Part shown: positions 6,700-63,060 of the stretch, piece by piece
Layout: every line of letters starts with the position of its first letter
Position numbering within the stretch: the stretch's first letter is position 1
NCBI RefSeq assembly: GCF_026626665.1
Contig: NZ_JAPNKE010000002.1
Location: 1,357,204-1,421,203 of the forward strand
Reading direction: 5' to 3'
Length of the DNA: 64,000 bases
Source: Nannocystis pusilla
Lineage (GTDB): Bacteria; Myxococcota_A; Polyangia; Nannocystales; Nannocystaceae
Made by a program: the position numbers and the translations under genes
The notes under the pieces: model-generated
Databases searched by the model: none
What the model saw: the letters and a program-made list of their open reading frames with translations, nothing else
Told to the model about the DNA's origin: nothing

Positions 6700-6783
6700 G
6701 CGGAAGGACATGTCCGCGGCGGCATGTTCGGAAGGTCATGTCCGCAGGTGCATGTCCGGAAAGACATGCTCCTGCGGACAGCC

Positions 6784-7521
6784 TCAGCGGTTGTCGAGCG
6801 CGACCCGGCGGAAGGACCCGCACCCGCCGGCCGACGGGGCGCCCGGCGTGGCGAAGCACGGGATGCCCGGGTCCGGCCCGTCGACGACGACGTTGCAGCG
6901 CCAGCTCCAGCCGTCGCCGACGGCGACGTCGTCGGGGACGGTCGAGACGAGCCGGAACGTCGCGCGCTGGGCCGGCGGCAAGCTCGTGACCTCGCGCGCG
7001 TCGCGGTCCTCTGCGTCGAGGATGACGTTGCCGCCCGCGGGCGCGAAGCCGACGAGGCCGACGTCGTGGAGCGCCAGCGGCACCTCGCAGCCGTTGTGCA
7101 GCTCCACGACGGCCCGCGGCGGGGCGCCGCGGATCGCCCGCAGCTCGACGCCGAGGCAGTTCACGACCCGGCGCCGCTCCTCCTCCGCGAACTGGCGCTC
7201 GACCTCGGCCCGCCGCGCCTCGGCGGCGCGATCGTCGAGCACGACCGCGACGATGTAGCCGCCCGCCAGCAGCACGTGCATGACGACGGGCCCCCAGGTG
7301 CGCCGGCCGACCCACAGCATGAGGAAGGTCGTCAACAGCGCGTAGGCGACGAGGATCTCGAGCGTGAAGACGGCGGCGAGGCCGAGGAGAACGGACTCAC
7401 CGCGCGGCAGGCCGAGCAGGACCTCGCCGAACACGTAGAGGTAGAGGACGACCAGCGCCACGAGGGCCAGGCCGTGGAGCTGCCAGGCGCGACGCGTGTC
7501 GCGGCGGTCGGGCGCCGTCAC
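6784..7521 (-). CDS. Hypothetical membrane protein
   Basis: The GTG start at 7521 overlaps the stop of the upstream lipoprotein gene (GTGA). TM helices LHGLALVALVVLYLYVF, LLGLAAVFTLEILVAYALLTTFLMLWV, VVMHVLLAGGYIVAVVL. The 5' part of ORF 6784..7680 overlaps the neighbouring gene and is discarded. Confidence 0.5.
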   Translation of the reverse strand: MTAPDRRDTRRAWQLHGLALVALVVLYLYVFGEVLLGLPRGESVLLGLAAVFTLEILVAYALLTTFLMLWVGRRTWGPVVMHVLLAGGYIVAVVLDDRAAEARRAEVERQFAEEERRRVVNCLGVELRAIRGAPPRAVVELHNGCEVPLALHDVGLVGFAPAGGNVILDAEDRDAREVTSLPPAQRATFRLVSTVPDDVAVGDGWSWRCNVVVDGPDPGIPCFATPGAPSAGGCGSFRRVALDNR

Positions 7522-8162
7522 TGCTGCGGCGGGGCGGCCGCCAGCGCGTTGCGGAACTCGGGGGTCTGGGCCAGCTTGACCGAGCCGTCGAGGGTGGCGT
7601 CGCCGAAGGCCTGCAGGAAGTTGCTCTCCTCCTGGCTGCGGCCCCAGCGGCTGCTCTTGCCGGCGATCGGGCCCTGCCACAGCGTCGTGCTGTTGCGGTC
7701 GATGAGCCAGCCCTGGGCCATCAGCGCGGCCTGGTAGGTGTTGCCCTCGACGATCCAGAACTGGTCGAGCTGCAGCTGCAGGGTGTGCGTCGCGGCCTGC
7801 GGATCGGCGGTGACCGGGAAGCCGAGCGCGGCGAGCTCCTTGGCGAACACGTTGCGGACGTACTCGGTCGGGACCTGGCCGCCGGCGGCGTTGTAGACCG
7901 GCAGGTCGGGGTTGGCGTCCTCGCTGACCCCGAGCAGGTGCGGATCGGTCACCTGCCGCTTGTCGACGATCTGGGCGATGAAGATGAGGGTGCCCGGGGG
8001 GACCGCCGCGAGGCCCGCGACCTTCGACGGATCGGCCTTCTCGCTCGGCGAATAGACCAGCGGGAAGGAGATGATGTCGGGCGACGAGGCGCAGGCGCCT
8101 GCGGTCAGCGCGGCGGAGAGGAGGCCGCAGGCGAGGAGCGAGGAGCGAGCGCGGTGCTGCAT
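7518..8162 (-). CDS. Hypothetical lipoprotein
   Basis: Signal peptide plus lipobox MQHRARSSLLACGLLSAALTAGAC. Coding-like composition. Confidence 0.6.
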   Translation of the reverse strand: MQHRARSSLLACGLLSAALTAGACASSPDIISFPLVYSPSEKADPSKVAGLAAVPPGTLIFIAQIVDKRQVTDPHLLGVSEDANPDLPVYNAAGGQVPTEYVRNVFAKELAALGFPVTADPQAATHTLQLQLDQFWIVEGNTYQAALMAQGWLIDRNSTTLWQGPIAGKSSRWGRSQEESNFLQAFGDATLDGSVKLAQTPEFRNALAAAPPQQ

Positions 8163-8362
8163 GGCGGGGTCACAGTAGCACCCCGCGCCGGGCCCGGCGA
8201 CGCGGCCCGCCGCAGCCGCAGGCAGTGCAAACGGTGACGCCGATCACCGCGCGCCGCGGCGGGCGCGCAGGCGAACGCAACTGCGGTTAACAACGTTCAA
8301 AAGCCCACCAGGGGCCGATCGCGGCCGGCTGCGGGCTGCAGACAAGCAGAGCGTGCAGGGGT

Positions 8363-9995: not shown

Positions 9996-10980
9996 CGGGC
10001 AGGGCCGCCGCGTCGGGCCGTCCATCCCATTGAAGAGCAGGAGACGGGCCGTCGCCGGGGGCCCCGCGGCGGTCCGCGTCTTGGATGGTGGCGGGGCCGT
10101 CGGGCCCGCGTGGCTGTCACTCTTGGCGACGCGAACGACGGATGGGTGGCGTCGCGTCGGCCCGACGGGTCGGGCGGCCGTCTCCTACTTTTAGGGTCAA
10201 AGAGGGCAGAAGGTCTGCGTCGCCGTGGCTTGGGGGCCCGTCGGGTCCGTATGGCCGTCTCCTACTTTTATGGTGGGAGAGGGGGACTGGCCGGTCGACC
10301 TCGCATGGCCGTGCACTACGGGCAGAGGGAGACGGCGCCTGGCGGGACCATGCCAGTCGGTCGGGCCCGGTGGCTGTGAACCGCTGGATCGATGGAGGCG
10401 GCTCCTGTCACCGACGGGACCGCTGAATTGCCGCTCCTTTCGCTCGCTACATGCCCTTCCGCGAGCGCCGGGGGCCTGCGAGGGTGGACCACCACGAGGG
10501 GTTCTTCCGGGGGTGCCGCCCCGCATGTCTCCGGGGACATATGGTGACAGTCGCGGCGGGCGGCAATCCTCGGATGTCTCTCGGAACATGTGTCCTTTTC
10601 GCCGCGAAATATTTTCCTGCACCTCGCGCGCCAGCCGCTGGCGGACGGGCGCCGCGGCGCTCTCGCGGGTCCGGCGGTTCGACCGCCGGGCCCCGCGAGC
10701 GCGGACGGGGTATGGCGAATCATCGCATGTCTCGAGAGACATCCCAACGCCGAGGCCGGCGGCTGCGGCGGTCCGCGCGCGGCGAGCTCGGCGGTCCGCA
10801 GCATTCGCATGACTCGAAGGACATCGCCATAGAAGTGTTCCTGCGTTCGAGTCGCAGGTGCGGGTGTGCGGCGGCCTGGTCCAAAGACCTTGCACCTCCG
10901 CAAGCCCGACCGCGGCTGCAGAGTGTGCACGGCGCGGCGCACTATCGCCGGCGACGCGTCGCGCATAGAGTCCGGCTCCC

Positions 10981-13215
10981 ATGCGTAGGATTGTTCTGCC
11001 TCTCCCCCTCTCGGTCGCCCTCGCGACCCTCGCCGCTTGCGGCGACGATGCGACCGTCGACACCACCGCGTCGACCTCCGAGACCTCGACCACCGACGAC
11101 TCCACCAGCACGAGCCCGGGTCCGACCAGCGACGCGCCGACCACCGGCGTGCCGACCACGACCGACGCGACGACGTCGACGAGCACGACCGACGCGACCA
11201 GCACGACGACGGACGACACGACGACCACCACGTCGACGACGGACGACACGACGACGACGACGACCGACACGACCGACACGACCACCGCCGCCGACAACTG
11301 CGGCGACGGCGTGATCGAGGATCCCGAGGTGTGTGACGGCGCCGCGCTGGCCGATCAGGACTGCGTCAGCCAGGGCTTCGACAGCGGCACCCTCGCGTGC
11401 GCGGCCGATTGCAGCGCGTTCGACATCAGCGGGTGCGTCCTGGCCTCGTGCGGCAACGGCTCGATCGAGGGCGAAGAGGCGTGCGACGGCGAGGACCTGG
11501 CCGGGCAAGACTGCGTGTCGCAGGGCTTCGAGAGCGGCACCCTGACGTGCATGGAGAACACCTGCGTGTTCGAGCTGGGCGGGTGCTTCACCTGCGGCGA
11601 CGGCAACATCTCGGGCACCGAGGTGTGCGACGGCACCGAGGTCGGCGGCGAGGACTGCGTCAGCCAGGGCTTCGAGACCGGTCAGATCGCCTGCGCAGCC
11701 GACTGCAGCGCGCTCGACACCAGCGACTGCAGCACCTGCGGCGACAACGCCCTGAGCGGCGCCGAGGAGTGCGACGGCGCCCTGCTCGGCGCCGCCACCT
11801 GTCAGACGCAGGGCGCCGACTACGGCACCCTCAAGTGCTCGGCCGACTGCGGCTTCGACCTCTCGGCGTGCATCACCGCCGTCTCCGAGATGGAGCCGAA
11901 CGACGACGGCATGGTCGCCACCAGCACCAACGACTTCAGCGCCGCCAACGCCAACGGCCCGTTCACCGGCGACACGCTGATCAAGGCGAAGATCACCCCG
12001 GTCGGCGACGACGACGTGTTCGCCGTGCAGAACACCGGCGACGGCTACGCCACGCTGCGGCTCGAGACCTTCAGCATCGAGGGCCCGGGCACCTGCACCA
12101 CCATCGACACGGTGATCGACATCCGCACCGCCGCCAACGTGCTCCTCGTCACCGACGATCAGAGCGGCATCAACAACTGCTCGCTCATCACCAACTACCC
12201 GCTGGCGCCGGGCGAGACCGTCTACGTGCGGGTGTACGACTACCTCGACAACACCGTCATCGACAACTACCTGCTCGACATCCAGCTCGACCCGGTCATT
12301 TGCGGCGATGGGGCGCTCGGCCCCGGCGAGCAGTGCGACGACGGCAACGGGGCCAACGGCGACGGCTGCAGCGACGTTTGCAAGGTCGAGGGCGCGACCG
12401 CCGAGATCGAGCCCAACAACACCAACGCGCAGGCCGACGGGACCGGGATCGTGTCGACCGGCAACTCGCTGTTCGCCGGCGCGATCACGCCGGTCGCCGA
12501 CGTCGACCGCTACCGCCTCGACCTCGCCGCCGCGAGCTTCCTGCGCCTCGAGAGCTTCACCGCGCTGAACGACTGCGCCGGCATCAACACGGTGCTGCGG
12601 CTGTTCGACAGCAACAACGTCTCGATCATCGCCGACACCGCCAACTCGGGCATCAGCAACTGCTCGTCGCTGGTGTTCCCGGTGCCCGCCGGCACCAGCT
12701 ACATCCACCTCGAGGAGAACGGCAACAACGCCGTCATCAACAGCTACTTCCTCCAGGCCGCGGTGCTGTCCGACGCGGGCGCCGAGACCGAGCCGAACGA
12801 GACCCTCGCGGCCGCCAACGTCAACCTGCAGAACGGCTCCGACCTGCAGGTGTTCGGCGACCACGCGGTCAACACCGACTCCGACTACTACCGCATCGAC
12901 GTCCCGGTGGCCGGCAGCTCGCTGCGCCTCGAGATCATCGAGGGCGACCGCACCGTCGAGACGTGCGAGAGCAACGGCGTCGACTCGCGCCTGACCCTGT
13001 ACACCGCGGGCGGCGTCGAGATCGCCAACGACGACGACGACGGCCGCGGCTTCTGCTCGATGATCGACGGCACCGGCAACACGCCGCTGGACGCCGGCGC
13101 GCACAACCTGGCCGCCGGGACCTACTACGTCCAGGTGCGCGCGTCGACGTTCTCGCAGAACGGCGCCGCCGGCCAGTTCATCTACCGGCTGGCCGCCACC
13201 GTGCGCAAGCCGTGA
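10981..13215 (+). CDS. Secreted lipoprotein: Thr/Ser-rich linker, about 6 Myxococcus cysteine-rich repeats, three pre-peptidase C-terminal (PPC)-like domains
   Basis: Signal peptide plus lipobox (LATLAAC). Repeated CGDGxxxxxExCDG...DCxxQGF units. EPNDD / EPNNT / EPNET ... YY modules typical of PPC domains. Confidence 0.8.
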   Translation: MRRIVLPLPLSVALATLAACGDDATVDTTASTSETSTTDDSTSTSPGPTSDAPTTGVPTTTDATTSTSTTDATSTTTDDTTTTTSTTDDTTTTTTDTTDTTTAADNCGDGVIEDPEVCDGAALADQDCVSQGFDSGTLACAADCSAFDISGCVLASCGNGSIEGEEACDGEDLAGQDCVSQGFESGTLTCMENTCVFELGGCFTCGDGNISGTEVCDGTEVGGEDCVSQGFETGQIACAADCSALDTSDCSTCGDNALSGAEECDGALLGAATCQTQGADYGTLKCSADCGFDLSACITAVSEMEPNDDGMVATSTNDFSAANANGPFTGDTLIKAKITPVGDDDVFAVQNTGDGYATLRLETFSIEGPGTCTTIDTVIDIRTAANVLLVTDDQSGINNCSLITNYPLAPGETVYVRVYDYLDNTVIDNYLLDIQLDPVICGDGALGPGEQCDDGNGANGDGCSDVCKVEGATAEIEPNNTNAQADGTGIVSTGNSLFAGAITPVADVDRYRLDLAAASFLRLESFTALNDCAGINTVLRLFDSNNVSIIADTANSGISNCSSLVFPVPAGTSYIHLEENGNNAVINSYFLQAAVLSDAGAETEPNETLAAANVNLQNGSDLQVFGDHAVNTDSDYYRIDVPVAGSSLRLEIIEGDRTVETCESNGVDSRLTLYTAGGVEIANDDDDGRGFCSMIDGTGNTPLDAGAHNLAAGTYYVQVRASTFSQNGAAGQFIYRLAATVRKP

Positions 13216-13336
13216 CGCCGGGCGCCCGCTCCGGGCGCGCCGCTCACGAACGACGGCCATGTCCTGCGGGACATGGCCGTTCGGCCATTGTCGAACGGAC
13301 ATGTCGCCGCGGACACGGCCGCCGCGCCGGCCCGAC

Positions 13337-13669
13337 CTACGGGATCTTGCGCAGCCGGACGTCGCCGGCGGGCCCGGCGATGTCGGTGAAGATGCCGGAC
13401 AGGCTGGTCGGGCTCTCGACCTTGCCGACGTAGAGCGCGTGGTAGCCGGTCTTCTCGTTGACCTGGCGGATCGAGAACAGGGTCCCGCGCGGCGACGAGT
13501 ACAGCGTGCCCTGGAAGTGGCTCGGGTCGTCGCCGGGGAACACGTAGCGGCCGACGAAGTGCTCGGGGTCGAGCTGGATGATGATCAGCTCGGACGGCAC
13601 TGTCGTGGGCGCGAGCTGCCCGTTGAGGGTCCGATCGAAGCTGAATTCCCAACGTCCGCTGAGGTCCAT
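13337..13669 (-). CDS. Hypothetical small protein (110 aa)
   Basis: Coding-like composition (MDLSGRWEFSFDRTLNGQLAPTTVPSELIIIQLDPEHFVGRYVF...). The overlapping ORFs are Arg-rich noise. Confidence 0.5.
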   Translation of the reverse strand: MDLSGRWEFSFDRTLNGQLAPTTVPSELIIIQLDPEHFVGRYVFPGDDPSHFQGTLYSSPRGTLFSIRQVNEKTGYHALYVGKVESPTSLSGIFTDIAGPAGDVRLRKIP

Positions 13670-13765
13670 AGGGGCTCCCGAGGCCCGACCGTAGGCGCCC
13701 GCACGGCGCCAGTCAATGCCCCCGCGCGCGCGTTCGCCAGCGCGCGCGGCGGGGCGGCCGCGGCA

Positions 13766-15255: not shown

Positions 15256-16752
<1,497 letters not shown>

Positions 16753-16988
16753 GCGGAAGCGAGGAGGGCCCGGGTCGCCGCTCCGGGACGCGGGGCTGCG
16801 AGGGACGTCGGGCCTCGGCGGCCGCTTCGGCGAGCTTCATGCGGCGCGGACGTCGAGGGCGGCGAGGCTTCACGGGTCGCGTGCTCGGCTCGACAGGCGC
16901 CGGAAGGTCCGGGATGTCTGCACGGACATGTCCGGTGGAGCATGTCGTATCATTTATGTCTCTATGGACATGCTTTAAAGCATGTCCC

Positions 16989-17708
16989 TCAGAACCGGCC
17001 GGCGAGCGACAGGCCGACGAAGCGGGGGGTCACGCTCGGCTCGAGCCGCAGCTCGCTCAGGCGCGAGACCCGGACGGCGCGGGCGTACGAGACGCCGTAG
17101 GCGAGCAGGCCGGCGCCGGCGACGGTGAGCGACTGGCCGGCGGCGGTCAGCACCAGCCAGGCGCTCCAGCGGTCGCGGACGCAGCTCTCCGTCAGCGTGC
17201 CCTCCTGGCGGCAGCTCTCGGCCCCGAACCTGTCGCGCCACAGGGCCACCCGCGAGCCGACGTACATCGCCAGGCCGAGGGCGAGCAGACCGGCGCCGCC
17301 GCCGAGGTAGGCCGGGGCGATCTTCTCGCGGCGCTCGTGCCGGGCCCGGTTCCACGCCGTGAAGCGGCCGCGCACGGTCCCGCCGCCGGCCGCCAGCCCG
17401 ATCGCGGCGAAGTTGAACAGCGGGGCCACGGTCGAGAAGCCGAGGTAGCGCAGCGACTCGTCGACGCAGCCGGTGACCGTGACCTGCAGCTCGGGGAAGA
17501 CGAACTGCTGGCCGCCGCAGCCGCGGCGGAGGATGCCGATCCGCCACACGTGCGCGGCGAGCCCGAGGCCGCCCGCGACGCCGGCGCTGACCAGGAGGCC
17601 GAGGCCCGACAGAGGCATCGCCGGCGGCAGCTCGCGCGCGGGCGCGGGCGCGGGCCCGACCGGCCGGACGAGCGTGAGCGACACGAACAGGGCGAGCGCG
17701 GGCGACAT
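16989..17708 (-). CDS. Hypothetical membrane protein
   Basis: ATG at 17708 (MSPALALFVSLTLV...) with four predicted TM segments. The 5' extension of ORF 16989..18131 is translation of the tandem repeat array and is rejected. Confidence 0.45.
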   Translation of the reverse strand: MSPALALFVSLTLVRPVGPAPAPARELPPAMPLSGLGLLVSAGVAGGLGLAAHVWRIGILRRGCGGQQFVFPELQVTVTGCVDESLRYLGFSTVAPLFNFAAIGLAAGGGTVRGRFTAWNRARHERREKIAPAYLGGGAGLLALGLAMYVGSRVALWRDRFGAESCRQEGTLTESCVRDRWSAWLVLTAAGQSLTVAGAGLLAYGVSYARAVRVSRLSELRLEPSVTPRFVGLSLAGRF

Positions 17709-17939
17709 CGCCGCAAGGTGAGGGCGATCGCGGATCGACGCCAGCGCGCGCGGCGGTCCGCGAGGTCGCCGGAATCGTCGGTGTGCGCGGCGTCGCAGCG
17801 AGCAGGTGCGCGGCGCGAGGCGGGCGACCGGGCGGAGGAGGTCTCGAAGGACATGTCGATGACGCGGGCCGCAGTCGAGGCTCGGAGCTGGCGCAGCGGC
17901 GCGGCGACCAGGACGTGCCGTTCGTCGAGCGGCCGCGGC

Positions 17940-18140
17940 GCGACGTGGCGAAGAGGACATGTCAGAACGGCCATGGCGCGCGGGTGAGCCCGTGTGCCGA
18001 CGTGGCGAAGAGGACATGTCGGAACGGACATGGCGAACGGGTGAGCCCGCGGGCCGACGTGGCGAAGAGGACATGTCGGAACGGACATGGCGAACGGGTG
18101 AGCCCGCGGGCCGACGTGGCGAAGAGGACATGTCGGAGCG
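17940..18140. repeat. Tandem array (~62 bp unit, about 3.3 copies) built from the CATGTCC...GGACATG dyad motif
   Basis: GAAGAGGACATGTCGGAACGGACATGGCGAACGGGTGAGCCCGCGGGCCGACGTGGC repeated. It translates as the MSSSPRRPAGSPVRHVRSD x3 artefact on the minus strand and MSERTWRTGEPAGRRGEED x3 on the plus strand. Confidence 0.7.
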
Positions 18141-18182
18141 GACATGCGACCAGCGGTCCGCCCTGCCGAGCGGCGGCGCGGC

Positions 18183-19280
18183 TCAGATCTCCGGCGACTC
18201 GCAGGTCTCCTTCGGCGTGAGCGTGACGAAGGCGAGCAGGCCGTCCTCGCCGGCGATCAGCGCGCCGACGGTGCTGCCGCGGGAGACCACGCGAGCGCCG
18301 GCGCCGACCGGCGTGGGCTCGGCGAGCATGGAGGACTCGGGCCACCCGCCGAGCGTGCCGTCGTCGTAGAGGGCGGTGAAGATGTCGTAGACGCGGGCGA
18401 GGCCGAGGACCGGGATCGCAGGGTCGTCCGGGTAGAACGAGACCTCCTTGGCGGCCTGATGCAGGACCTTGCCGGTGGCGGTGACGACGGCGGCCTCGTC
18501 GTAGACCTCGGCGATCCGCACGAGGTCCTCGGTCGTGCCGGTGTCGACGCGGGCCCAGGTGAGGCCGGCGTCGACGCTGTGGACCGCCAGGCCGCCGTCG
18601 CCGACCGCGACCAGCGGACTGCCGGTGACGGCGCGGAACGAGCCGGTGGCGGCCGGATCGAGGGCGACCGGCTGCCAGGTCGCGCCGGCGTCGGCGGAGC
18701 GCACGATCACGCCGTCGCCGACGGCGACCCCGTGCAGCGAGAGCTCGCCGTCGACGATGAAGTTGAAGAACACGACGTCGCGCAGCGCGGCCTCGGTGCC
18801 GAGATCGACGGGGACCCAGGTGTCGCCGCCGTCATCGCTGCGGTGGGCGACACCGCCGTCGCCGACGACCATCCAGCGGTCGAGATCGATCCGCTCGACC
18901 CGCTTGAGGGCCGGATCTGCGGGCAGCGCGAGAGGATGGAACACGCCGCCGTCGTCGGGGCGGAACAGTCGACCGTCGGCGGTCAGGGCGAGCGCGGTCT
19001 TCGGGCCGAGCGCGGCGACCGAGACGAACTCGACCGCCTCGTCCGCCTTCAGCGGGGTGACGTCGAGGAGGTAGACGAAGTCCTCGCAGCCGGGGGTGCC
19101 CTCGGTGACCGTGGGCGACTCCTCGGTCGGGTCGGGCAGGCCGGTGGTCGGCGACGAGGTCGAGGACGACGAGGATGAGGAGGTCGAGCTCGACGATGCG
19201 CCGTCGGTGTCGGCGTCGGGTTTGGAGCAGGCGAGGGCCAGCGTCGGCAGCACGAGCAGGAGCGAGCGAAGCGAAGTCAT
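18183..19280 (-). CDS. BNR/Ycf48-like repeat lipoprotein (putative beta-propeller)
   Basis: MTSLRSLLLVLPTLALAC lipobox; poly-Ser linker; repeated DGGDTW / DAGATW / DAGLTW motifs. Confidence 0.7.
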   Translation of the reverse strand: MTSLRSLLLVLPTLALACSKPDADTDGASSSSTSSSSSSSTSSPTTGLPDPTEESPTVTEGTPGCEDFVYLLDVTPLKADEAVEFVSVAALGPKTALALTADGRLFRPDDGGVFHPLALPADPALKRVERIDLDRWMVVGDGGVAHRSDDGGDTWVPVDLGTEAALRDVVFFNFIVDGELSLHGVAVGDGVIVRSADAGATWQPVALDPAATGSFRAVTGSPLVAVGDGGLAVHSVDAGLTWARVDTGTTEDLVRIAEVYDEAAVVTATGKVLHQAAKEVSFYPDDPAIPVLGLARVYDIFTALYDDGTLGGWPESSMLAEPTPVGAGARVVSRGSTVGALIAGEDGLLAFVTLTPKETCESPEI

Positions 19281-19754
19281 GGCAGTCCCTTCAATTGGTC
19301 GAGAGCTGCCGGAGCTGTCAATCGCCGGCGACGCATCACGCGGGGCGCTGTGGTGATTGCCCGCGGTGGCGGTCGCGCCCGCGGCGCCTGCCAGACGCGG
19401 CGCACGGCCGACGGGCCTCCGGCGTGGGTCGGCGGCGCCCCAGCCGGGCTCGAATGCAGGCAGCGCCGCGTCTCCGTTCGCGCGCCGACCTGGCATGGCA
19501 ATGACTGGACTCCGCACTCGCGGTGAATGTCCATGTAGACATGTTCGATGGGACAGATCGGAGGCGGCTCTTCGTATGCCGCGGCGACGGCCGTGGCCGA
19601 GCGCTGCGGATGGGCGCGGCGCCGGCGTTCGCAGGAGTGTGGGCTGTCGGCGCGCGGATCGACGCGGCCCCGCGCTCGCATCCGCCCGGCAGCGCCCGCG
19701 GCCCGCGCGACCGTGCGCGTTCCCTCGGCCCGGCAAACGGCGGACAATGAGGCG

Positions 19755-42099: not shown

Positions 42100-43152
42100 T
42101 CACGCGGCGGTCGGAGGGTCTCGCCCAGCATGTTCAGACGGACCCGGGCGCGTTGTCGGCCGAGCTCTGCGAGCTCTTCGGCGTAGAAGAAGTCGGGCGC
42201 GCCGAAGGCCGGGCGCAGCTCGCTGATCCAGGCCGCGTCGGGGTCGTACTCGGCGAGGAAGATGCGGCCGACCCACTCGGGGTTGCGGCCCTGGAGCATC
42301 CGCAGCACGAAGTACGGCTTGCCCGCGATCTCCGTCACGCCGTCGACCAGGATCTTGCCGGGCGTCGCCGACATCGACGGGCCGCGGACGCTGCGACACA
42401 GCCCCGACAGCTGGCGGTAGGCGCCTTGATAGATCTGCAGCGCGCGCCAGCGGCACCTTGAAGTACTCCTTCGGCCCCGTGTCGCGCTCGATGAACATGT
42501 AGTAAGGGACAGCGCCGAGCCGCACCTGCGCGCGCCACAGGTCGGCCCACACGGCGGGGTCGTCGTTGACGCGGCGGACCAGCGGGGCCTGGCAGCGGAC
42601 CACCGCGCCGGAGTCGCGCACGCGCTGCAGCGCCGCGACTGCGGCCGGCGTGGCGAGCTCGCGCGGGTGGCTGTAGTGGGCCATCACCGCGACGTGCTTG
42701 CCGGCGGCCTGGATCTCGCCGAACAGGCGCAGCAGGTCGTCGGCGTCCGGATCGGTGAGGAACCGCGCCGGCCAGTAGGCGAGGGCCTTGGTGCCGAAGC
42801 GGATGTGCGCGAGGTTCGGCAGGTCGGCGCGCAGGAGCGGCTCGACGTAGCGCCGCAGCACGCTGGTGCGCATCACCAGCGGGTCGCCGCCGGTGAACAG
42901 GACGTCGGTGACCTCGGGGTGGTTTCGGAGGTACTCGACCAGGGTCTCGGCCTCGCGGGCCGCGAACTTGAGGTCTTCGAGGCCGACGAACTGGGCCCAG
43001 CGGAAGCAGTAGGTGCAGTACGCGTGGCAGGTCTGGCCCTGCGCCGGGAAGAACAGCACCGTCTGGCGGTACTTGTGCTGCAGGCCGCGCTGCACGGCGC
43101 CGGCCTCGATCGGCACGTTGAGGTCGATCTGGCCGGCGGGGTGCGGATTCAT
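42100..43152 (-). CDS. KamA-family radical SAM protein (lysine 2,3-aminomutase / EpmB-like); frameshift near 42450; 3' end uncertain
   Basis: CHAYCTYCFRW (CxxxCxxC); ...VPYYMFIERDTGPKEYF. Continuation in another frame: RGPSMSATPGKILVDGVTEIAGKPYFVL... Confidence 0.55.
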   Translation of the reverse strand: MNPHPAGQIDLNVPIEAGAVQRGLQHKYRQTVLFFPAQGQTCHAYCTYCFRWAQFVGLEDLKFAAREAETLVEYLRNHPEVTDVLFTGGDPLVMRTSVLRRYVEPLLRADLPNLAHIRFGTKALAYWPARFLTDPDADDLLRLFGEIQAAGKHVAVMAHYSHPRELATPAAVAALQRVRDSGAVVRCQAPLVRRVNDDPAVWADLWRAQVRLGAVPYYMFIERDTGPKEYFKVPLARAADLSRRLPPAVGAVSQRPRPVDVGDARQDPGRRRDGDRGQAVLRAADAPGPQPRVGRPHLPRRVRPRRGLDQRAAPGLRRARLLLRRRARRARPTTRPGPSEHAGRDPPTAA

Positions 43153-43896
43153 CGCCGCTGGATCGCCCGCGCCCGCGCCTGCAGCTCGGCCTCGCTGCCG
43201 CGGCGCACGAGGTCGACCAGCGCGCTCAGATCGGCGTCGCCCAGCATCTCCGGCTGAGGAATCGTCAATTGATAGATAGGGTCGTCGGGCGCGCGCGACC
43301 AATCGATCAGGTGCTCCAGCACGTAGGCGTTGACGCGGAACGGCAGGACCTGCGCGACCGCTCGCAGCCGCAGCCGCGCGTCGGCCGACAGGGCCGCCAA
43401 TTGAGGGATTGCATCGATGTCACGGGCGGTGAACGCCCGGTACGCACCTGATTTCAACGCGCCGTCCGGCATCCGACTCCACTCTCCATTGCGAGCGCCC
43501 GGGCGCCGAGGGCGCCGGACGAGTGAGTGTCTCTTGGGACAGGCGCGTTCGACCTCGGCGGAACACGACGCAAGCAGGCCGCGCTCGTCCGACGCCGGGC
43601 CACGCCCGCCGCGGGGATGATTGAGCCCCAACTTAACACGCAATCGAGGCTCACCGCAAGGCGAAATCGTCGTCGTCGACGCGTAATCGTATTGGCGAAC
43701 CGAGGTTCGCAGGACGTCGATTCGTCGATTACATCATCGTAACGACTTCAGGCGCCGGCGCGCGAATCGTGCGCGTGTTCTTCGGGACATGTCACGAGGG
43801 ACAGCACGGTTGCCGCGGCCGCGGGAGCGCGGTATACCGGCGGCCTGTGCGGGGCGGGGCCGATGCGGCCGCGCCTCGACGGAGGGAGAACGAAGC

Positions 43897-47589: not shown

Positions 47590-49399
47590 TCATCGTGTGA
47601 GTAGTTCGTCGAGGGCCAGCATCCACTCGCCGGCGGGCGTCACCACCCACGCGCCCGCGGTCAGGCGGGCGCGCACGGCCGCCGCGGCTTCGACCGGCAG
47701 GGCGTCGACGATCGCCATCGGGGCGAGCTGAGCGTATGGGACATCGTCGGCCAACCGACGACAGCCCTCTGGCCACGCGGCCAGGGCGACCCGTCGACCC
47801 TGCCGGTCGAGGACCGGCTGCAGGCCCGGCACGTCGGCCGCGAGCAGCGCGTCGAGGGCGATGTCGTCCCAGGCGGCCGCCGCCTCGACGACGACGCCGT
47901 GGCCGGGCAGGCCTGAATCATCGGACATGACCCCAGGTTCCTGTCCCATGGGCTCTGTGCTCATGGACAGGTCCCGAAGGTCAGCCACGCGCCGGCGCAT
48001 GCGCGCGAGCAGGGCGGTCGCGTCCGGGCGGCGCGCGGGGTCGGGGTCGAGGGCGTCCTCGACGACCGCGCGGGCCTCGGGCGCGCTGCCGCCGAGGTTG
48101 CCGGCGACGAGCGCGACCAGCAGCGCGGCGGCGCCGTAGACGTCGCTGGCGGCGGTGGGGCCCGCCGGCGCGGACCTCGGGCGCGGTGATCGTGAGCAGC
48201 TCCTCGAGCGCGCCGGTGCGGGTGGCGATGAGCCCGGCGATCGCGTCGGCGCCGAACGGGCCGAGCAGCGGGCGCCCGGCGGCGTCGCACACGAGCTGGG
48301 CCGGCAGCAGCGAGCCGTGGACCAGGCCGCGCGCGTGGGCGGCGGCCAGGCCCTCGAGCAAAAAGGCGATCAGGGCCCGGGCCCGCGGCAGCGGCATGCC
48401 GGGCGGACGGATGAGCGCCCGCAGGTTGTTGCCGGCCTCCCAGGGCAGGATGAGGATGCCGGCGCGGGCGTCGAACTGGACGATGCCGCGGATCGCCGGG
48501 TGCTCCAACGCGGCGGCGGCGAGGGCCCGGCGGTGGAACGCCTCGAGCGCGTCCTGGACCGCGGGGTCGCCGGCGCCGCTCTCCTGCAGCTCGGCGAGGA
48601 GGAGGTGGATCTCGACCTCGGCGAGGGTGACGCGGTCGATGCCCTCGTAGGCCGCGCCGGAGAAGCTGGCCGGCAGCGAGGCGCGGACGAGGAAGCGCGC
48701 CGGCACCGGGGCGCCCTCGGGGGCCTCGCCGCGGCCTTGCAGGACGATCTGGGCCGCGAGGTCGTGGCCCAGGGCCCCGAGGCCGCGGGCCAGGAGGCGG
48801 CTCAAGGCGGCGCGGTCGGCCCCGCCGGCGCGGATGGCCGCCTGGGCCCGTCGCACCGCGGCCTCGGCGTCGCCGAGCTCCCACGACAGCTCGGCGGCGA
48901 GCTGCAAGGTCGGGCCGTGGCGCTCGGGCAGCGGCTCCAGCAGCGCCAGGGCCTCGCGCACGCGGTCGGCCTCGGCCAGCACGCGCGCGGCCCCGAGTCT
49001 GTCGCCGGCGCGCACGAGGGCGCGGGCGCGGGCCTCGGGGTCGTGGTCGCCGAGCGCCAAGATCCGGGCCGCGTCGGCGTGCCGACCCTTGCGCTGCAGC
49101 AGGGCGGCGGCCTGCTGGCGGGTGTCGGCGTCGGCGGCGGCGAACACCGCGATGATGCGGTCGACGACGTCGGGCCGGCCGAGCTCGATCGCCGCGCGCA
49201 GGGCGTCGAGCGGGCGGCCGGCGCGGGCGTAGTGCTCGCAGGCGCCGGCGAACTCCCAGATCTGCTCGAGCACCCAGCCGGCCGCGGCGTGCCGGCCCGC
49301 CAGCGCGAGCGCGTGGGCGAGGGCCTCGTGCCGCCCCTGGGCGAGCATGCGCTGCTCGTCGTCGGTCAGCGGCTCGGGCGGGGCCGGGACGGCCGCCAA
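47590..49399 (-). CDS. TPR-like N-terminus plus protein-kinase-like domain that is probably a pseudokinase (HGSLLPAQL in place of HRDLKPxN); frameshift near 48160
   Basis: ORF 47981..49399 (…LAAAHARGLVHGSLLPAQLVCDAAGRPLLGPFG…TAPEVRAGGP) continues in the frame of ORF 47590..48000 (TAASDVYGAAALLVALVAG…MRRRVADL…). Confidence 0.5.
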
Positions 49400-51703: not shown

Positions 51704-51846
51704 CCGGCGGCCGCGGCGCTGGCCCCAGGCCCGCAGCAGGCCCCGCAGGCCCGCTCGGCGGGGCGTCCGCGCGCCTTCGCCGGTTTTTGTCAATTTTGCG
51801 AGATCGCGGCTAGCCTCACCGGGCCGGAAGGATAGGCGAGGGTCAC

Positions 51847-52440
51847 ATGACGGAGGACATGCTCGAAGACATCGAGGTCGAATCGACCATCCCGCGCGCC
51901 CTGGTGATCCTGGCCGAAGGGGCAGAGGAAGCCGAGGCCGTGATCGTGGTCGACATCCTCCGCCGCGGCGGGATCGACGTGGTGTTCGCGGGGCTCAACG
52001 GCGACAGCCCGGTCCTGTGCGGCCGCAAGATGAAGCTCATCCCCGACATCGCGCTGTCGGCGGTGACCGGCCACTTCCAGGCGATCGTGCTGCCGGGCGG
52101 GGCCGAAGGCGCCCGCCGCCTCGGCAGCTCCGAGGCGGTCGGCGAGCGCCTCCGCCACGCTGTCACCGACGGCCTGGTCGTCGGGGCCATCTGCGCGGCC
52201 CCGCTGGCCCTCTTGGCCCACCAGGTGTTCGCCGGCAAGGCGATGACCTGCCACCCCAGCGTGGCCTCGCGGATCGCGATGTACGGCAAGCTGGTCCAAA
52301 AGCCAGTCGTCGAGGACGGCCAGCTCGTCACGAGCCAGGGCCTCGGCACGGCGATCATGTTCGGGCTGACGCTGGTCCGCAGGATCATGGGCGACGTCCG
52401 CGCGGCGGACGTCGAGCGCGGCCTCACGCTGCCGCGCTGA
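51847..52440 (+). CDS. DJ-1/PfpI-family protein
   Basis: ALVILAEGAEEAEAVIVVDILRRGG...ICAAPLAL (nucleophile Cys elbow). Confidence 0.8.
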   Translation: MTEDMLEDIEVESTIPRALVILAEGAEEAEAVIVVDILRRGGIDVVFAGLNGDSPVLCGRKMKLIPDIALSAVTGHFQAIVLPGGAEGARRLGSSEAVGERLRHAVTDGLVVGAICAAPLALLAHQVFAGKAMTCHPSVASRIAMYGKLVQKPVVEDGQLVTSQGLGTAIMFGLTLVRRIMGDVRAADVERGLTLPR

Positions 52441-57097: not shown

Positions 57098-57267
57098 CGG
57101 CCGAGGATACGCCGAGCGCCCGGCGGCAAACAGCCCTCGCCCTGGGACCGTCGATTCGTCGCACCCGCGGCGACGCGCGAGCGAGCCGCGAGCGCTCGAA
57201 AACGGTCGCGGCCGCGCCGTCCAGGCGACGATGCGGACGGAGCGGCCGGGTCACGCGAGCGCGCGAG

Positions 57268-58641: not shown

Positions 58642-59335
58642 AGACCGGCGAGCGCGGCGAGGCCAGGGCCCTGCGAGGTTGGCCGCCCGGCGGCGGCCTG
58701 AGCTGCTCTGCTCGGTTGCCAGGGGCGATGCGGCGCGTGCGTCGCGGCGCTCCGGCTCGTGGTGGCGGCGCTGGGGCTCGCTCCGGGACGACGCTGCAGC
58801 CCTGCAGACGCCGTCGTGAGGACGGGCCTCACGAAGATGCCTGGTCGATCGGACAGGCCCTCGAACGAGGCGGCGGTCGGCGCACTTCGAGGTGAGCGCC
58901 GACTGGGCCCCGCGGCGACCGCAGACGGAGGGCCGTCGCGGCGCTTCGAGGCAGGCGTCGCCTCGGTCCGCGGCGCACGGAGACGGGAAAGCTGGGCGGT
59001 GCGTCGAGGCGGACGTCGTCGTGGTCCGCGGCGCCCGGCGCGAGGGCCGTGCAGCGCATCGAGGTCGTACCGGCCCGTGGCGATGCGTCCGGTGCTTCGA
59101 CGGTGAATCCAGTGAGCTCTCCCTGTCCCAGGTCATGACGGGTCGAGGCAGACGTCGCCGCGGTCCGCGGTGAGGCGCGGAGCAATGGCCGCACGCGACA
59201 TGACCGAAGGGACAGCCTCTCGCGCACGCAGCCGGGGGCTGCACGTTTTTGCAGGGGCGACGGACGAGCCGACCCCCGGCGAGGGTCGATGGGCGCTTGA
59301 CAAACATGCTTTCCATCGTGGAAAGAATACGCGTC

Positions 59336-60445
59336 ATGTCCGAAAGCGAGCCGAACCGGGTGCGGGCGGTGCGAGAGGCCCGTGGTCTGTCGCAGAGCGA
59401 GCTCGCGGCGGCGGCCAGCCTGTCGCGGCAGAGCGTGGGGGCGATCGAGGCCGGGCGGGCGACGCCCGCGGTCGACGTGGCGCTGCGGCTGGCGCGGGCG
59501 CTGGATTGTCGGGTCGAGGAGCTGTTCGCGCTCGCGGACGCGGAGCTGCGCGTCGAAGCCGAGCCGGTCGGGCCGGTGCAGGCCGGTCGGGTCGCGCTGG
59601 CCCACCTCGGCGGGCGCTGGGTGACGTATCCGCTGGCGGGCGAGGCGATGCGGCTGGCGGCCGACGCGATCGTGGCGGAGCCGCCGAAGCGACGCGGGCG
59701 GGTCCAGGTCGAGCTGGTGCGGCCGCGGGCCGAGGCGCAGGACAACCTGATCGTCATGGGCTGCGCGGCGGCGCTGGGGGTGCTGGCCGATCGCCTGAGC
59801 GGGCGCGCGGGGGCGGGGCGGGTGATGTGGCTGCCGCGCTCGAGCACGCAGGCGCTGGCGGCGTTGGCGGCCGAGCACACGCACGTGGCCGGGGTGCACC
59901 TGATCGACGGGCGCACCGGCGAGGCCAACGTGCCCGACGTCCGCAAGCACGCGGCCGGGGCGATCGTGCTGATCACTCTGGCGCGGTGGGAGGCGGGGCT
60001 GCTGCTGGCGCCCGGTAATCCGCGGAAGATCCGCGGCGCGGCCGACCTCGGGCGCCGGGGATTGCGGCTGGTCGCGCGCGAGACCGGCTCGGGCTCGCGG
60101 CGGCTGCTCGAGCGCGAGCTCTTGCGCGCGGGCCTGTCGGCGGCGCTGGCCGGGGCGGCGCCGGTGCGGGCGAGCGGTCACCTCGAGGTGGCGCAGGCGA
60201 TCGCCAGCGGGGCGGGCGAGGTCGGCGTGGCCACGCGCGACGCCGCGATCGCGTTCGGCCTCGAGTTCGTGCCGCTGGCCGAGGAGCGCTACGACCTGGC
60301 GATCCCGCGGGCCCTGCTGGCCGACCCGCGGCTGGAACGATTCCTCGACGCGATGACCTCGGCGGCGTTCCGCCGCGAGCTGTCGTCGCTCGGCTACGAC
60401 GTGCGCGGCTGCGGCGACCGCGTGGCGGAGCTCGACGCCGCCTGA
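59336..60445 (+). CDS. XRE-family HTH transcriptional regulator fused to a periplasmic-binding-protein-like domain
   Basis: VRAVREARGLSQSELAAAASLSRQSVGAIEAGRATPAVDVALRLARAL HTH, then a type 2 PBP-like fold. Confidence 0.7.
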   Translation: MSESEPNRVRAVREARGLSQSELAAAASLSRQSVGAIEAGRATPAVDVALRLARALDCRVEELFALADAELRVEAEPVGPVQAGRVALAHLGGRWVTYPLAGEAMRLAADAIVAEPPKRRGRVQVELVRPRAEAQDNLIVMGCAAALGVLADRLSGRAGAGRVMWLPRSSTQALAALAAEHTHVAGVHLIDGRTGEANVPDVRKHAAGAIVLITLARWEAGLLLAPGNPRKIRGAADLGRRGLRLVARETGSGSRRLLERELLRAGLSAALAGAAPVRASGHLEVAQAIASGAGEVGVATRDAAIAFGLEFVPLAEERYDLAIPRALLADPRLERFLDAMTSAAFRRELSSLGYDVRGCGDRVAELDAA

Positions 60446-60459
60446 CCTTGGAGCAGATC

Positions 60460-61446: not shown

Positions 61447-61452
61447 GCGCCC

Positions 61453-62823
61453 GTGGACGCGACGACCTTCATCCTCGCCGCGGCGCTGGGGGCCGCCCCG
61501 GCCGACGAGATCACCAGCGTCCCGGTGCCCGAGAGCCGCGAGGCGGCGCCGCGGGTGCCGGCGGCGGCCGGCGGCGGCAGTGCCCCGGAGGACATGTCTG
61601 AAGCGACAGGTCCTCGGGGGCCTGTCGTCGAGACCACCTCGACCGCCGTGCAGGGGACGGGCGAACCTGGCGGCGCCGTCCCGGCGGGTCCCGTCCCGGC
61701 GGGCCCTGTCGCGCCGACGGGCGCTCCCGCCCGGGATGCCTCGAAGGACATGCCCTCGGGGACAGCCAGGCCGCCGCTGCGCGAGCGGCTGCAGTTCTTC
61801 CCGTACGGGTGGATCCGCACCGACGCGACCGGGTACTCGGCGCCGCGCGAGGGCTACAGCAACATCAGCCTGGCGGGGGCGCGGATCGGCGGCGGGGTCC
61901 AGATCGGGCCGGTCACCGCGTTCGTGACGATCGAGGCGGCGCAGGCCAAGGGGCCGCAGCTGTTCGACGCGTTCATCGCCTGGGCCGCGGCGCCGCGGCT
62001 GCGGCTGCGCGCCGGCCAGTTCAAGGCGCCGTTCGGCCTGCGCTTCAACGCGCCCGACCTGGTCGACGAGCTGCCGCGCGCGCCGCTGTCGATGCTGGCG
62101 GCCACGCCCGGGCGACAGGTCGGGCTCGAGGTGGCCTACGACTTCTGGCGCTGGGCCGAGGTCACCGCCGCGGTGTTCTCCGGCATCGGCCAGAACCGCG
62201 AGGCCAACAACACCAAGATCGCGTTCGCCGGCAAGGTGCAGCTGAGTCCGCTGGCGTTCCTGCGGCGCGGCCCGCAGCTCCTGCTGGTCGCGTCGGTGTT
62301 CGCCTACCACAAGACCAACGGCTTCACGCCGACGGTGACCACCGCGTTCGCCTTCGACTTCTTCCACGGCCTGCCGAGCACGGGCGCGTCGCGCCGCTTC
62401 ACCGCCGGCGGCGGGCTGTTCTGGCGCTTCCTCTCGGCCCGCGGCGAGTTCTTCTACACCTACGACTCGCGCGAGCGCGACACCGACGGCGACCCCTTCA
62501 CGCCCGGCGACCCGCTGCCCCAGCTGATCGGCGCCGGCGGTTACGCCCAGGTCGGCGCGGTGGTGACGGGCCAGGACAAGGACCCGGCGACGCTGCTGCC
62601 GCGGCTGGCGAGCCGCCGCGTGCGCGACAGCGCGGTCGAGCTGTCGGCCCGCTTCGAGCGCTTCCGCGTCGGCGCCCGCGACGTGGTCGGCAACGGCATC
62701 ACCGCGACGTCGGCCGGCGTGAACTGGGTGCTGCTGCAGCACCTGCGGGTGTTCGCGGCGGTGAACTGGCAGCGCCTGGAGACCGCGATCCCCGAGATCC
62801 CCGCGCCACCTCGTGGGGCGTGA
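61453..62823 (+). CDS. Phosphate-selective porin O/P-like outer-membrane protein; start uncertain
   Basis: Beta-barrel-like C-terminal region (...FKAPFGLRFNAPDLVDEL...GVNWVLLQHLRVFAAVNWQRL). Starting at 61453 gives a signal-like MDATTFILAAALGAAPA, but dyad-motif copies lie at 61590-61760. The alternative start is 61748. Confidence 0.5.
   Translation: MDATTFILAAALGAAPADEITSVPVPESREAAPRVPAAAGGGSAPEDMSEATGPRGPVVETTSTAVQGTGEPGGAVPAGPVPAGPVAPTGAPARDASKDMPSGTARPPLRERLQFFPYGWIRTDATGYSAPREGYSNISLAGARIGGGVQIGPVTAFVTIEAAQAKGPQLFDAFIAWAAAPRLRLRAGQFKAPFGLRFNAPDLVDELPRAPLSMLAATPGRQVGLEVAYDFWRWAEVTAAVFSGIGQNREANNTKIAFAGKVQLSPLAFLRRGPQLLLVASVFAYHKTNGFTPTVTTAFAFDFFHGLPSTGASRRFTAGGGLFWRFLSARGEFFYTYDSRERDTDGDPFTPGDPLPQLIGAGGYAQVGAVVTGQDKDPATLLPRLASRRVRDSAVELSARFERFRVGARDVVGNGITATSAGVNWVLLQHLRVFAAVNWQRLETAIPEIPAPPRGA
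61590..61760. repeat. Dyad-motif copies (GGAGGACATGTCTGAAGCGACAGGTCC ... GAAGGACATGCCCTCGGGGACAG)
   Basis: Same CATGTCC/GGACA(G/T)G half-sites seen at the other loci. Confidence 0.5.
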
Positions 62824-62869
62824 CCGGCGGTATCGCCGGCTTCTTCCTCGGCCGCGCCGGGCGCGGCGA

Positions 62870-63060
62870 TTGACGTGTCCGAAGGGGCATGTTCATCAGG
62901 ACAGGATTGGGCGTCGCGGGCGAATTCGTCGGCGTCGCGCGGGCGTCACGGCGGGGCGACGCGTGGTGCGAGGTCGACCTGTCCGTGAGGCCATGTCGCT
63001 CCTCTCCCGGAGATCGGGGGGACATGGTCTTCAAAGCATGTCCGGAAGTGCATGCGTGAG
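62870..63060. repeat. Dyad-motif cluster in the intergenic region (GACGTGTCCGAAGGGGCATGTTCATCAGGACAGG ... GGGGACATGGTCTTCAAAGCATGTCCGGAAGTGCATGC)
   Basis: Three or more half-site pairs. Confidence 0.55.

Follow-up and report, generated by a model that had tools for sequence, protein, structure and literature searches.

A stretch of 64,000 nucleotides from the genome of the myxobacterium Nannocystis pusilla (contig NZ_JAPNKE010000002.1, positions 1,357,204 to 1,421,203 of the forward strand; the whole of this stretch is termed here the window, and coordinates refer to it) carries, dispersed among its genes, a short palindromic repeat that recurs far more often than chance allows. An earlier note on this DNA, made from its letters by themselves and termed here the sequence-only reading, had described the repeat as an inverted CATGTCC-N4-6-GGACATG motif lying between genes or at their 5' ends, and had proposed that it might be the operator of a global regulator, an element family resembling either repetitive extragenic palindromic (REP) elements or miniature inverted-repeat transposable elements (MITEs), or an RNA structure of 5' leaders. 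Here the repeat is characterized as a dyad of two 10-bp palindromic cores set exactly 4 nt apart, which is concentrated behind genes rather than in front of them and whose two arms, at those places, are complementary to each other more often than independence predicts. It is classified as an undescribed relative of the REP elements and of highly iterated palindrome 1 (HIP1), within the highly iterated or repetitive extragenic palindromes, and it may serve as a hairpin at the 3' ends of transcripts.

The repeat unit

Allowing at most one mismatch, the palindrome GGACATGTCC occurs 30 times in the window, where 1.82 occurrences are expected and where none of 100 dinucleotide-preserving shuffles reaches 30. 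The two-unit form, GGACATGTCC-N4-GGACATGTCC, is found 11, 26, 49 and 71 times at up to 3, 4, 5 and 6 mismatches, respectively, against expectations of 0, 0.07, 0.33 and 2.5. A recurrence at more than 20 places, as the sequence-only reading had it, is therefore far above chance (30 versus 1.82 for the palindrome, and 49 versus 0.33 for dyads with at most 5 mismatches). Nearly all of the positions that it listed do hold the motif, which is weak or degenerate at four of them (10490-10600, 44460-44485, 51845-51880 and 59200-59340). Because most copies are degenerate, the strict form CATGTCC-N(3-8)-GGACATG has exactly two matches in the window.

In the window, the spacing between CATG tetranucleotides shows sharp peaks at 14 bp (21 pairs), 28 bp (9) and 42 bp (6), above a background of 0-3. 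When the seeded matches are set aside, a second unit (with no more than 4 mismatches) stands at +/-14 bp from 86% of good units, and in 138 of 149 partner units the start-to-start distance is exactly 14 bp; the spacer is thus 4 nt, and not the 4 to 6 nt of the sequence-only reading. A sequence logo gives the same anatomy, namely GGACATGTCC, a 4-nt spacer without conservation, and GGACATGTCC again. In other words, the true unit is the dyad of two 10-bp cores with a spacer of exactly 4 nt, and not the single palindrome. It can be written nnn-GGACATGTCC-N4-GGACATGTCC-n'n'n', a form that offers a possible stem of 10-13 bp with a 4-nt loop. The CATG centre is conserved as sequence; when dyads are picked solely by their outer GGA..TCC bases, 84 of 117 have CATG in both arms. 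The element is strand-symmetric, in that its loop logo, oriented by transcription, is the same under reverse complementation, and no preference for GNRA-type loops is seen in that logo. The flanks are weakly AA...TT, with one or two positions at most reaching about 40% A or T.

Dyads are frequently lengthened into arrays phased at 14 or 28 bp. Read in the 14-bp register, the sites cited for the window are arrays of 2-6 units, each consisting of a 10-bp palindrome and 4 variable bases, and, independently of this, Tandem Repeats Finder (TRF) detects periods of 14 and 28 bp in 6701-6777 as well as a 57-bp repeat, present 3.8 times, at 17933-18146.

Copies in the window

Several of the arrays lie between convergent genes. 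The first (6706..6780; 5-6 units in 14-bp phase with a 28-bp super-period, for which TRF gives 2.7 copies of period 28 and 4.9 of period 14) begins 7 nt past the stop codon of a histidine-kinase gene (5257-6699, +) and fills the gap up to an open reading frame (ORF) on the other strand (6784-7521, -); its folding z is -4.7 (+ strand) and -5.4 (- strand). A five-unit array (13255..13320) between the genes 10981-13215 (+) and 13337-13669 (-) has mirrored spacers (TGCG/CCGC and GTTC/GAAC), so that the entire array is one long palindrome, which forms a single long stem of -54.5 kcal/mol (z -4.9) on the + strand and of -61.9 kcal/mol (z -6.1) on the - strand. (The centre of this nested palindrome is a unit, not a spacer; in this the array departs from the general pattern, in which no unit-centred covariation is seen.) Between the genes 15256-16752 (+) and 16989-17708 (-) lies an array (16910..16989) that contains one perfect unit, at 16924, as well as a hairpin of 11 bp (16964-16989), and between 40539-41939 (+) and 42100-43152 (-) the variant units GGACAGGTCC and GGACAGGCCA occur inside a 60-bp repeat present 1.9 times (41971..42089).

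Other copies follow a gene at its 3' side. The gene 18183-19253 (-) is followed by a lone unit (17849) and by the 57-bp tandem repeat (92% matches by TRF), each copy of which contains three phased units (17849..18149 in all). In the segment 22458..22606, two arrays (22458-22513 and 22555-22606) each directly abut the stop codon of a small (-) ORF; these two adjacent ORFs, of which 22607-22843 is TPR-like, share near-identical C-terminal codons (22458-22620), and gene and array appear to have been duplicated jointly. The region 37830..37929, downstream of the gene 37156-37803 (+), includes a perfect hairpin with a 12-bp stem and compensated arms, ACGGACATGGCC-CGAA-GGCCATGTCCGT, at 37828-37855 and a second copy at 37906-37929. 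A two-unit copy (38834..38857) lies 8 nt past the stop of the gene 38865-39314 (-), an array (47923..47974) lies just past the stop of 47981-49399 (-), and three arrays (62871-62894, 62975-63043 and 63146-63169; together 62871..63169) lie downstream of a porin-like gene, the first of them 48 nt past its stop.

Few copies are situated near 5' ends. Degenerate ones occupy two divergent gaps: a copy of 2-3 units (19523..19560) between 18183-19253 (-) and 19755-21041 (+), and another (34194..34231) between 32791-33966 (-) and 34538-34918 (+). A two-unit copy with 2 mismatches (30763..30786), directly upstream of a possible ATG of a (-) ORF ending at 29766, is among the few that are truly near a 5' end, and by itself it gives no fold signal (z -0.55). 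A degenerate three-unit copy (43771..43808) lies about 90 nt upstream of the true start of asnB (MCGIL, at 43897). The short ORFs starting MS..RTCP are artefacts that the palindrome creates through the ATG it contains.

Finally, some copies lie within ORFs. Two-unit copies with 4 mismatches each are found in a PEGA-domain ORF (21858..21881, in 21462-22463, -) and in a kinase-like ORF (23173..23196, in 22945-24261, -), and the porin-like ORF 61453-62823 (+) contains, within 61576..61769, an in-frame copy of three units (61576-61627, 42 nt) and another at 61746-61769. These two lie in its Pro/Ala/Gly-rich N-terminal region, where they are translated as ..EDMSEATGPRGPV.. and ..KDMPSGT...

Distribution among genomes

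One genome from each of 185,579 species was scanned for GACATGTCC-N4-GGACATGTC, yielding at least 107 stretches. Among the matches listed, 100 of 107 belong to Nannocystis (exedens, bainbridge, radixulma, punicea, RBIL2 and several metagenome-assembled genomes, MAGs), to a Nannocystaceae MAG or to a Myxococcales MAG; the other seven are lone matches in unrelated bacteria, without further copies in their 8-kb blocks. Among these matches, then, the repeat is lineage-specific and almost confined to Nannocystis. (Three of the lone matches, L077, L099 and L104, are from Pseudomonas and share mutually alignable DNA, with 2.0-4.5 kb of blastn alignment between loci; because the loci can be aligned and none has a further copy in its block, a single conserved site is more probable than a repeat family.)

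About 800 kb of scan loci show the same CATG periodicity as the window, with 330, 123 and 90 pairs at 14, 28 and 42 bp. Every lineage sampled has 0.25-0.54 dyads per kb; the window has 0.41, and four loci that had been fetched for an unrelated reason, and thus not chosen by motif, have 0.33. The window is therefore a typical stretch of a Nannocystis-type genome, and it shares 99.9% identity with a contig assembled from sequencing run ERR2215891. Extrapolating from these densities, a genome of 12-13 Mb would hold several thousand dyads.

Position relative to genes

Genes were mapped with a codon-bias caller built for this analysis, and every gap holding the match by which a locus had been selected was left out of the occupancy counts. 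Within the scan loci, the element is present in 33 of 72 convergent gaps (46%; 5.35 hits per kb), in 31 of the 201 tandem gaps (15%; 1.18 hits per kb) and in 10 of the 102 divergent gaps (10%; 0.58 hits per kb); in the window alone, 50% of convergent, 18% of tandem and 10% of divergent gaps are occupied. Across samples, densities span 3.2-5.4 hits per kb in convergent and 0.2-0.6 in divergent gaps. (A convergent-gap occupancy of 80% was rejected as inflated, every locus having been selected for a perfect copy; the corrected value is 46-50%.) In tandem gaps the elements lie at a median of 43 nt past the upstream stop codon and 186 nt before the next start codon, with 71 of 92 nearer to the stop, and several directly abut a stop codon. 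No fixed distance to start codons was found. Intergenic dyad density exceeds coding density more than 20-fold.

Hence the 5'-end placement given by the sequence-only reading is replaced by its opposite: elements concentrate after stop codons and between convergent genes. Nor do these positions suit the operator of a global regulator, given that the element is rarest in divergent, promoter-containing gaps (10%) and commonest in convergent ones (46-50%), and that its neighbours are unrelated. The latter include genes for a histidine kinase, a protease, a GMC oxidoreductase, an asparagine synthase, a porin-like protein, kinases and others, and clustering of 718 neighbour ORFs revealed no gene family that is recurrent beside elements; the families that do recur among these ORFs (kinases, histidine kinases, short-chain dehydrogenases and ECF sigma factors) are not linked to the element.

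Complementarity of the two arms

Positions that would pair between the two units of a dyad are complementary more often than independence predicts, whereas those inside one unit show no such excess. (A unit-centred hairpin, the form that the array at 13255 has, was considered as the general form and rejected for want of covariation.) Among 148 isolated copies, 79.1% of cells are paired, against 74.8 +/- 0.6 in shuffles, and double changes number 164 against 96.9; none of 500 shuffles reaches the observed values, and all slid controls fall below them. For isolated dyads, the unconserved flank positions 11, 12 and 13 share this excess, and pairing there amounts to 90 versus 61.8, 80 versus 59.3 and 74 versus 55.3, respectively (each with permutation p <=0.003). 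Arrays, for their part, fold on both strands, with z from -2.7 to -6.1.

This covariation depends on context. Pairing of the arms exceeds expectation in convergent gaps (1473 paired versus 1396.8 expected, p < 0.0005) and in tandem gaps (1102 versus 1050.9, p < 0.0005), and is at expectation inside ORFs (552 versus 549.9, p 0.42, in a small sample of n=69) and in divergent gaps (240 versus 234.7, p 0.19, likewise a small sample, n=29). Complementarity above independence is, in short, confined to copies downstream of genes, which is the wrong end of the gene for the RNA structure in 5' leaders that the sequence-only reading had considered.

A consensus terminator scan found 5 terminators where 4.2 are expected, so that canonical hairpin-plus-U-tract terminators are not enriched, and a consensus promoter scan was at chance level. 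Hairpins overall are not enriched either (132 in a generic census versus about 113 expected), those that bear the motif being distinct by their stem length. A search of the window against Rfam at the gathering threshold gave tRNA matches only and no family for the repeat.

Conservation between species and copies within genes

When N. sp. RBIL2 is compared with N. exedens (about 90-95% identity over 8 kb), the cores of orthologous dyads are kept and their loops and flanks are changed; at one copy, 19 of 20 core bases are kept and 0 of 4 loop bases. Other species pairs likewise keep the cores, even where the flanking intergenic DNA barely aligns. Some arrays are species-specific, their counterpart in another species being missing or different. 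Between the loci L041 and L090, array length differs by whole units (a 23-nt alignment gap), and the spacers of L090 alternate (TGGC/GAAC/TGGC), which suggests duplication of 28-bp, two-unit blocks. A test for target-site duplications at 25 offsets, with k = 3-5, revealed no flanking direct repeats.

About 17% of dyads lie inside ORFs that have normal codon bias on both sides, third-position GC dipping only within the element. Their density there, about 0.1 per kb, is some 100 times chance, and they are read in frame as GHVP.DMS,.DMS..TCP or WTCP.GHV. Such in-frame dyads in genuine ORFs include, besides those at 61576-61627 and 61746-61769 of the window, L051:6140, L010:5791, L085:7744, 7088, 7049 and 4877, L057:6039 and L019:2880. 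In a CusA-type transporter, the segment EHAPKDMSE aligns without gaps with the EHAPPDLS. of about 50 relatives. A copy in a pyrophosphatase-like protein, differing from the core at 1 base in 20, codes for GHVPGVMS within the conserved NYGFIPGT segment, as the gapless counterpart of GFIPGTLE in PDB entry 1qez and of SIPGLMSD in Myxococcus homologues; its rare codons GGA CAT GTC are kept in 3 of 4 orthologues, a count taken over few sites. At the L085 site, which lies in a large hypothetical protein with five equal-length orthologues, mismatches to the dyad number 0 (punicea), 2 (exedens), 3 (ILAH1), 4 (bainbridge) and 8 (a distant relative, in which there is effectively no copy), and rare codons again persist across the orthologues (likewise few sites).

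An interpretation of the in-gene copies as in-frame insertions, in the manner of Rickettsia palindromic elements, was rejected on the basis of homologue alignments for three conserved proteins, in which homologous codons are replaced without change of length. These alignments show no length change; the word is therefore made in place by substitution, and probably extended by slippage, and is not pasted in. Extension within a coding region is likewise indicated, as judged from the alignment of L085 (N. punicea, about 7040-7120) with its orthologues L114-L116, by a run of motif peptides (GHAQKDMS...GHAPKDTS...GHAP) whose length varies by species and which probably reflects array expansion.

Other features of the window

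The ORF 31247-32755 (-) matches the Pfam families MVP_shoulder (2.8e-09) and Vault_3 (3e-06), a vault-like protein being unusual in a bacterium. A tRNA-Leu(CAA) is called at 27505-27575 (-) by both Rfam and ARAGORN; a second Rfam tRNA match, at 31106-31171 (-) (49.9 bits, model positions 4-67), is without an ARAGORN call and may be a tRNA fragment or pseudogene. The proteins encoded at 10981-13215, 25011-26240, 26365-27471 and 27781-28788 are paralogous, the last three genes standing in a row, and those of 10981-13215 and 25011-26240 contain the Cys-rich repeat DUF4215, which is typical of myxobacteria. Tandem repeats free of the motif occur at 4952-5089 (47 bp, 2.9 copies), 58910-59064 (58 bp, 2.7 copies) and 11122-11296 (coding, 12-30 bp, rich in GAC/ACG).

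Relation to known repeat families

The sequence-only reading did not recognize the element as a described one, and literature searches bear this out: queries combining REP with myxobacteria, or Nannocystis with palindromes or repeats, gave nothing relevant, and the sequence string itself brought up p53 papers only.

Its closest likeness in anatomy and distribution is to the REP elements of Enterobacteria, Pseudomonas and Stenotrophomonas, together with the bacterial interspersed mosaic elements (BIMEs) and REP doublets forming hairpins (REPINs) that they compose. These, too, are short, abundant, lineage-specific and mostly extragenic palindromes that favour 3' ends and convergent gaps, that occur as singles, hairpin doublets and clusters, and that are inherited vertically at orthologous sites. 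Roles reported for REPs and BIMEs are stabilization of mRNA 3' ends, termination, and binding of gyrase or of integration host factor (IHF). Beside the REP stem there is reportedly (Messing 2012 and Di Nocera 2013 are said to describe it) a conserved tetranucleotide tag of the GTAG/CGTC type, which gives the element an orientation. The Nannocystis element has no such tag but weak, strand-symmetric AA...TT flanks; each of its arms is a perfect palindrome, so that the element lacks an orientation; its 4-nt spacer and 14-bp phasing are rigid; its copies also occur in ORFs, where they arise by substitution; and its density is several times that of the REPs of E. coli. The definition of a REPIN includes a single-copy gene for a REP-associated tyrosine transposase (RAYT, a Y1 transposase) flanked by the repeats (PMC5581495). 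The inverted hairpin doublet of the REPIN has its equivalent here in the dyad, as the covariation of its arms attests, although the arms are of 10-13 nt with a spacer of 4 nt. Of the REP/MITE-like family proposed by the sequence-only reading, it is thus the REP part that comes closest; the MITE or transposon part finds no support, there being no target duplications (3-5 nt repeats are absent), no transposase found nearby in the loci analysed and no change of length where copies lie in ORFs.

HIP1 (GCGATCGC) and the alternate palindromes of cyanobacteria occur inside and between ORFs, are conserved at orthologous sites beyond what codons need, and arise in place (PMC5861425, PMC4390886); a cognate, orphan DNA methyltransferase is a feature of the HIP type (PMC4390886). 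Like HIP1, the Nannocystis repeat is a short, GC-rich, hyper-abundant and clade-specific palindrome that is over-represented both within and between ORFs. HIP1, however, is a single 8-mer spread fairly evenly in coding DNA, whereas the repeat described here is a 24-bp dyad of fixed spacing that is more than 20 times denser in intergenic DNA, is biased to 3' ends and covaries there.

Further likenesses are partial. The DNA uptake sequences (DUS) and uptake signal sequences (USS) are words of about 10 bp, found roughly 0.5-1 times per kb, that are family-specific and that accumulate by substitution also within genes; in Neisseria and Haemophilus, inverted pairs of them behind genes form terminator-like hairpins. 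DUS and USS are non-palindromic, mostly single and variably spaced if paired, whereas 86% of Nannocystis units are paired at a rigid 4 nt. Bidirectional intrinsic terminators share with the element a symmetric hairpin between convergent genes and weak A-rich 5' and T-rich 3' flanks, but have idiosyncratic stems and a U-tract, whereas the stem sequence in Nannocystis is common genome-wide and is accompanied by no real U or A tract. Rickettsia palindromic elements (RPEs), which are insertions of 100-150 bp that lengthen proteins, are alike in being palindromic repeats translated in frame within genuine ORFs; the three tested Nannocystis copies replace codons instead, with no change of length.

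Interpretation and alternatives

The interpretation that we favour, with about an even chance of being right, is that the element has two layers, being a REP/BIME-like 3'-end hairpin built from a HIP1- or DUS-like DNA word. In the first layer, a sequence-specific process at the DNA level would generate the 24-bp word and keep it intact at any site where it is tolerated; the agent might be a protein recognizing the palindrome around CATG, repair linked to methylation, or some other process with a bias. Such a layer would account for the constant CATG centre, for the rigid 4-nt spacing, and for in-gene copies that arise by substitution without length change or arm covariation. In the second layer, a word situated behind a gene would be transcribed as a stable stem-loop able to serve either of two convergent transcripts, and its stem would then be kept complementary. 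Its likely job would be at the 3' ends of mRNAs, which it would define or shield by blocking 3' exonucleases and/or by helping termination--a role that would matter where canonical hairpin-plus-U-tract terminators are not enriched. The limitation of pairing by context fits this model, in which a word made anywhere is tolerated and its arms are kept paired only at transcribed gene ends. Each arm being palindromic in itself, the arms are direct repeats of each other as well, so replication slippage would readily lengthen a dyad into arrays of 14- or 28-bp period. Non-complementary CCTG/CCTG direct pairs, which exist among the dyads, fit such slippage, and the 28-bp and 57-bp tandem periods in the window count in its favour.

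Several points weigh against the two-layer interpretation. A role in 3'-end formation or protection is one that we infer from sequence. On the sense strand, G-U mismatches (106) and A-C mismatches (91) show no asymmetry, which is not what selection on an RNA made from one strand alone should give; for tandem gaps, where transcription is presumed to run one way, this is mild evidence against a function in RNA only. No T-tract follows the stem in the sense orientation, where there is only the weak AA...TT flank, and about 10% of divergent gaps also hold copies. Tolerance, and not function, could explain why elements are enriched at 3' ends, and the covariation of the arms could stem from templated repair in quasi-palindromes, with coding constraint masking it in ORFs; moreover, the in-ORF (69) and divergent (29) samples in which it was sought are small, and some of the context assignments made by the gene caller are wrong.

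Were the first layer all there is, the element would be a driven word of the HIP1 or DUS type, propagated by methyltransferase-linked short-patch repair or by biased uptake or recombination, and its hairpin and 3' location would be incidental to tolerance. Copies that arise in conserved genes by substitution without length change, their density in ORFs (about 0.1 per kb, or 100 times chance), a CATG centre kept as sequence in a strand-symmetric element, and rare A/T-ending codons (GGA, CAT, ACA, TGT) retained across orthologues are all what such a word would leave behind, and HIP1 shows the same combination of conservation in and between ORFs with a methyltransferase-linked repair model (PMC5861425, PMC4390886). 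A pure double-strand word, however, predicts no complementarity of arms, yet this reaches into unconserved flanks, specifically downstream of genes; single units are rare, 86% being paired at exactly 14 bp, unlike HIP1, DUS or USS; and intergenic density is more than 20 times that in coding DNA. This explanation seems rather unlikely. An extreme form of the two-layer interpretation, which we consider unlikely, is that a sequence-specific 'writer' installs and maintains the 24-bp dyad by substitution chromosome-wide, even in conserved enzyme cores, and that the word has been co-opted as a near-universal, orientation-free 3'-end hairpin that replaces ordinary terminators. The writer could be methylation-linked short-patch repair or a drive through biased uptake or recombination.

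The rigid spacing of 4 nt with an unconstrained spacer, the conserved and palindromic half-sites, the strand symmetry of the element and its presence inside genes as well as its enrichment between convergent ones would also suit an array of double-stranded binding sites--whether for a nucleoid-associated protein, for a gyrase-type BIME function or for a dimer of the CRP/FNR type on TGTCC-N4-GGACA--that manages topology where convergent transcription collides. At flank positions 11-13, however, there is complementarity without conservation, which points to base-pairing rather than protein contacts, and a 14-bp phase would set successive sites about 120 degrees apart on the helix; we regard a binding array as improbable.

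A classical REP/REPIN, i.e., a non-autonomous element copied by a single-copy RAYT (Y1/HUH) transposase that recognizes the hairpin in single-stranded DNA, seems quite improbable. Both are abundant, mostly extragenic, lineage-specific, hairpin-forming palindromic doublets inherited vertically at orthologous sites, some of the arrays are present in one species and absent from another, and the positional bias is REP-like. Yet the Nannocystis arms are perfectly symmetric, so that the two strands are indistinguishable, no conserved 5' tag stands beside the stem (the flanks being weakly AA/TT), no target duplications accompany the copies, and those in genes are substitutions rather than insertions. 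A tblastn search with E. coli RayT against about 920 kb (some 860 kb of it from Nannocystis and enriched for perfect copies) gave as its best match, at E = 0.08, a methyltransferase-like ORF in L015, and hence no convincing RAYT, in a sample that is well under 2% of the genomes and in which a single-copy RAYT is easily missed; nor does any recurrent family flank the element.

That the element is an operator through which a global transcription regulator acts, or an RNA element of 5' leaders, is the least likely explanation and one that we consider very improbable: a few copies do lie near starts (that at 30763 abuts a possible ATG, and that at 43771 is about 90 nt upstream of asnB) and the 5-N4-5 geometry of the dyad resembles FNR-type boxes, but divergent gaps are the least occupied class (10%), elements in tandem gaps hug the upstream stop codon at no fixed distance from start codons, and copies, which by density extrapolation to 12-13 Mb would number in the thousands, stand beside unrelated genes.

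Implications

The function and origin of hyper-abundant short palindromes such as REP, HIP1 and DUS have long been open questions, and the element described here has traits of each of them, in a genus that can be cultured and for which complete genomes exist. If the writer hypothesis were true, a single system would join molecular drive of the HIP1/DUS type with an RNA function of the REP type. More generally, the contrast between copies that covary (behind genes) and copies that do not (in genes) offers a way to separate the making of a word from the function of a hairpin. On the practical side, the ATG-TCC of the element gives rise to false ORF starts, and the element also causes artefacts of assembly and annotation in Nannocystis genomes. 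Among the matches listed, it is nearly absent outside the clade and can thus serve as a simple sequence marker of that group. In organisms that are mined for natural-product gene clusters, it may also mark the ends of transcription units.

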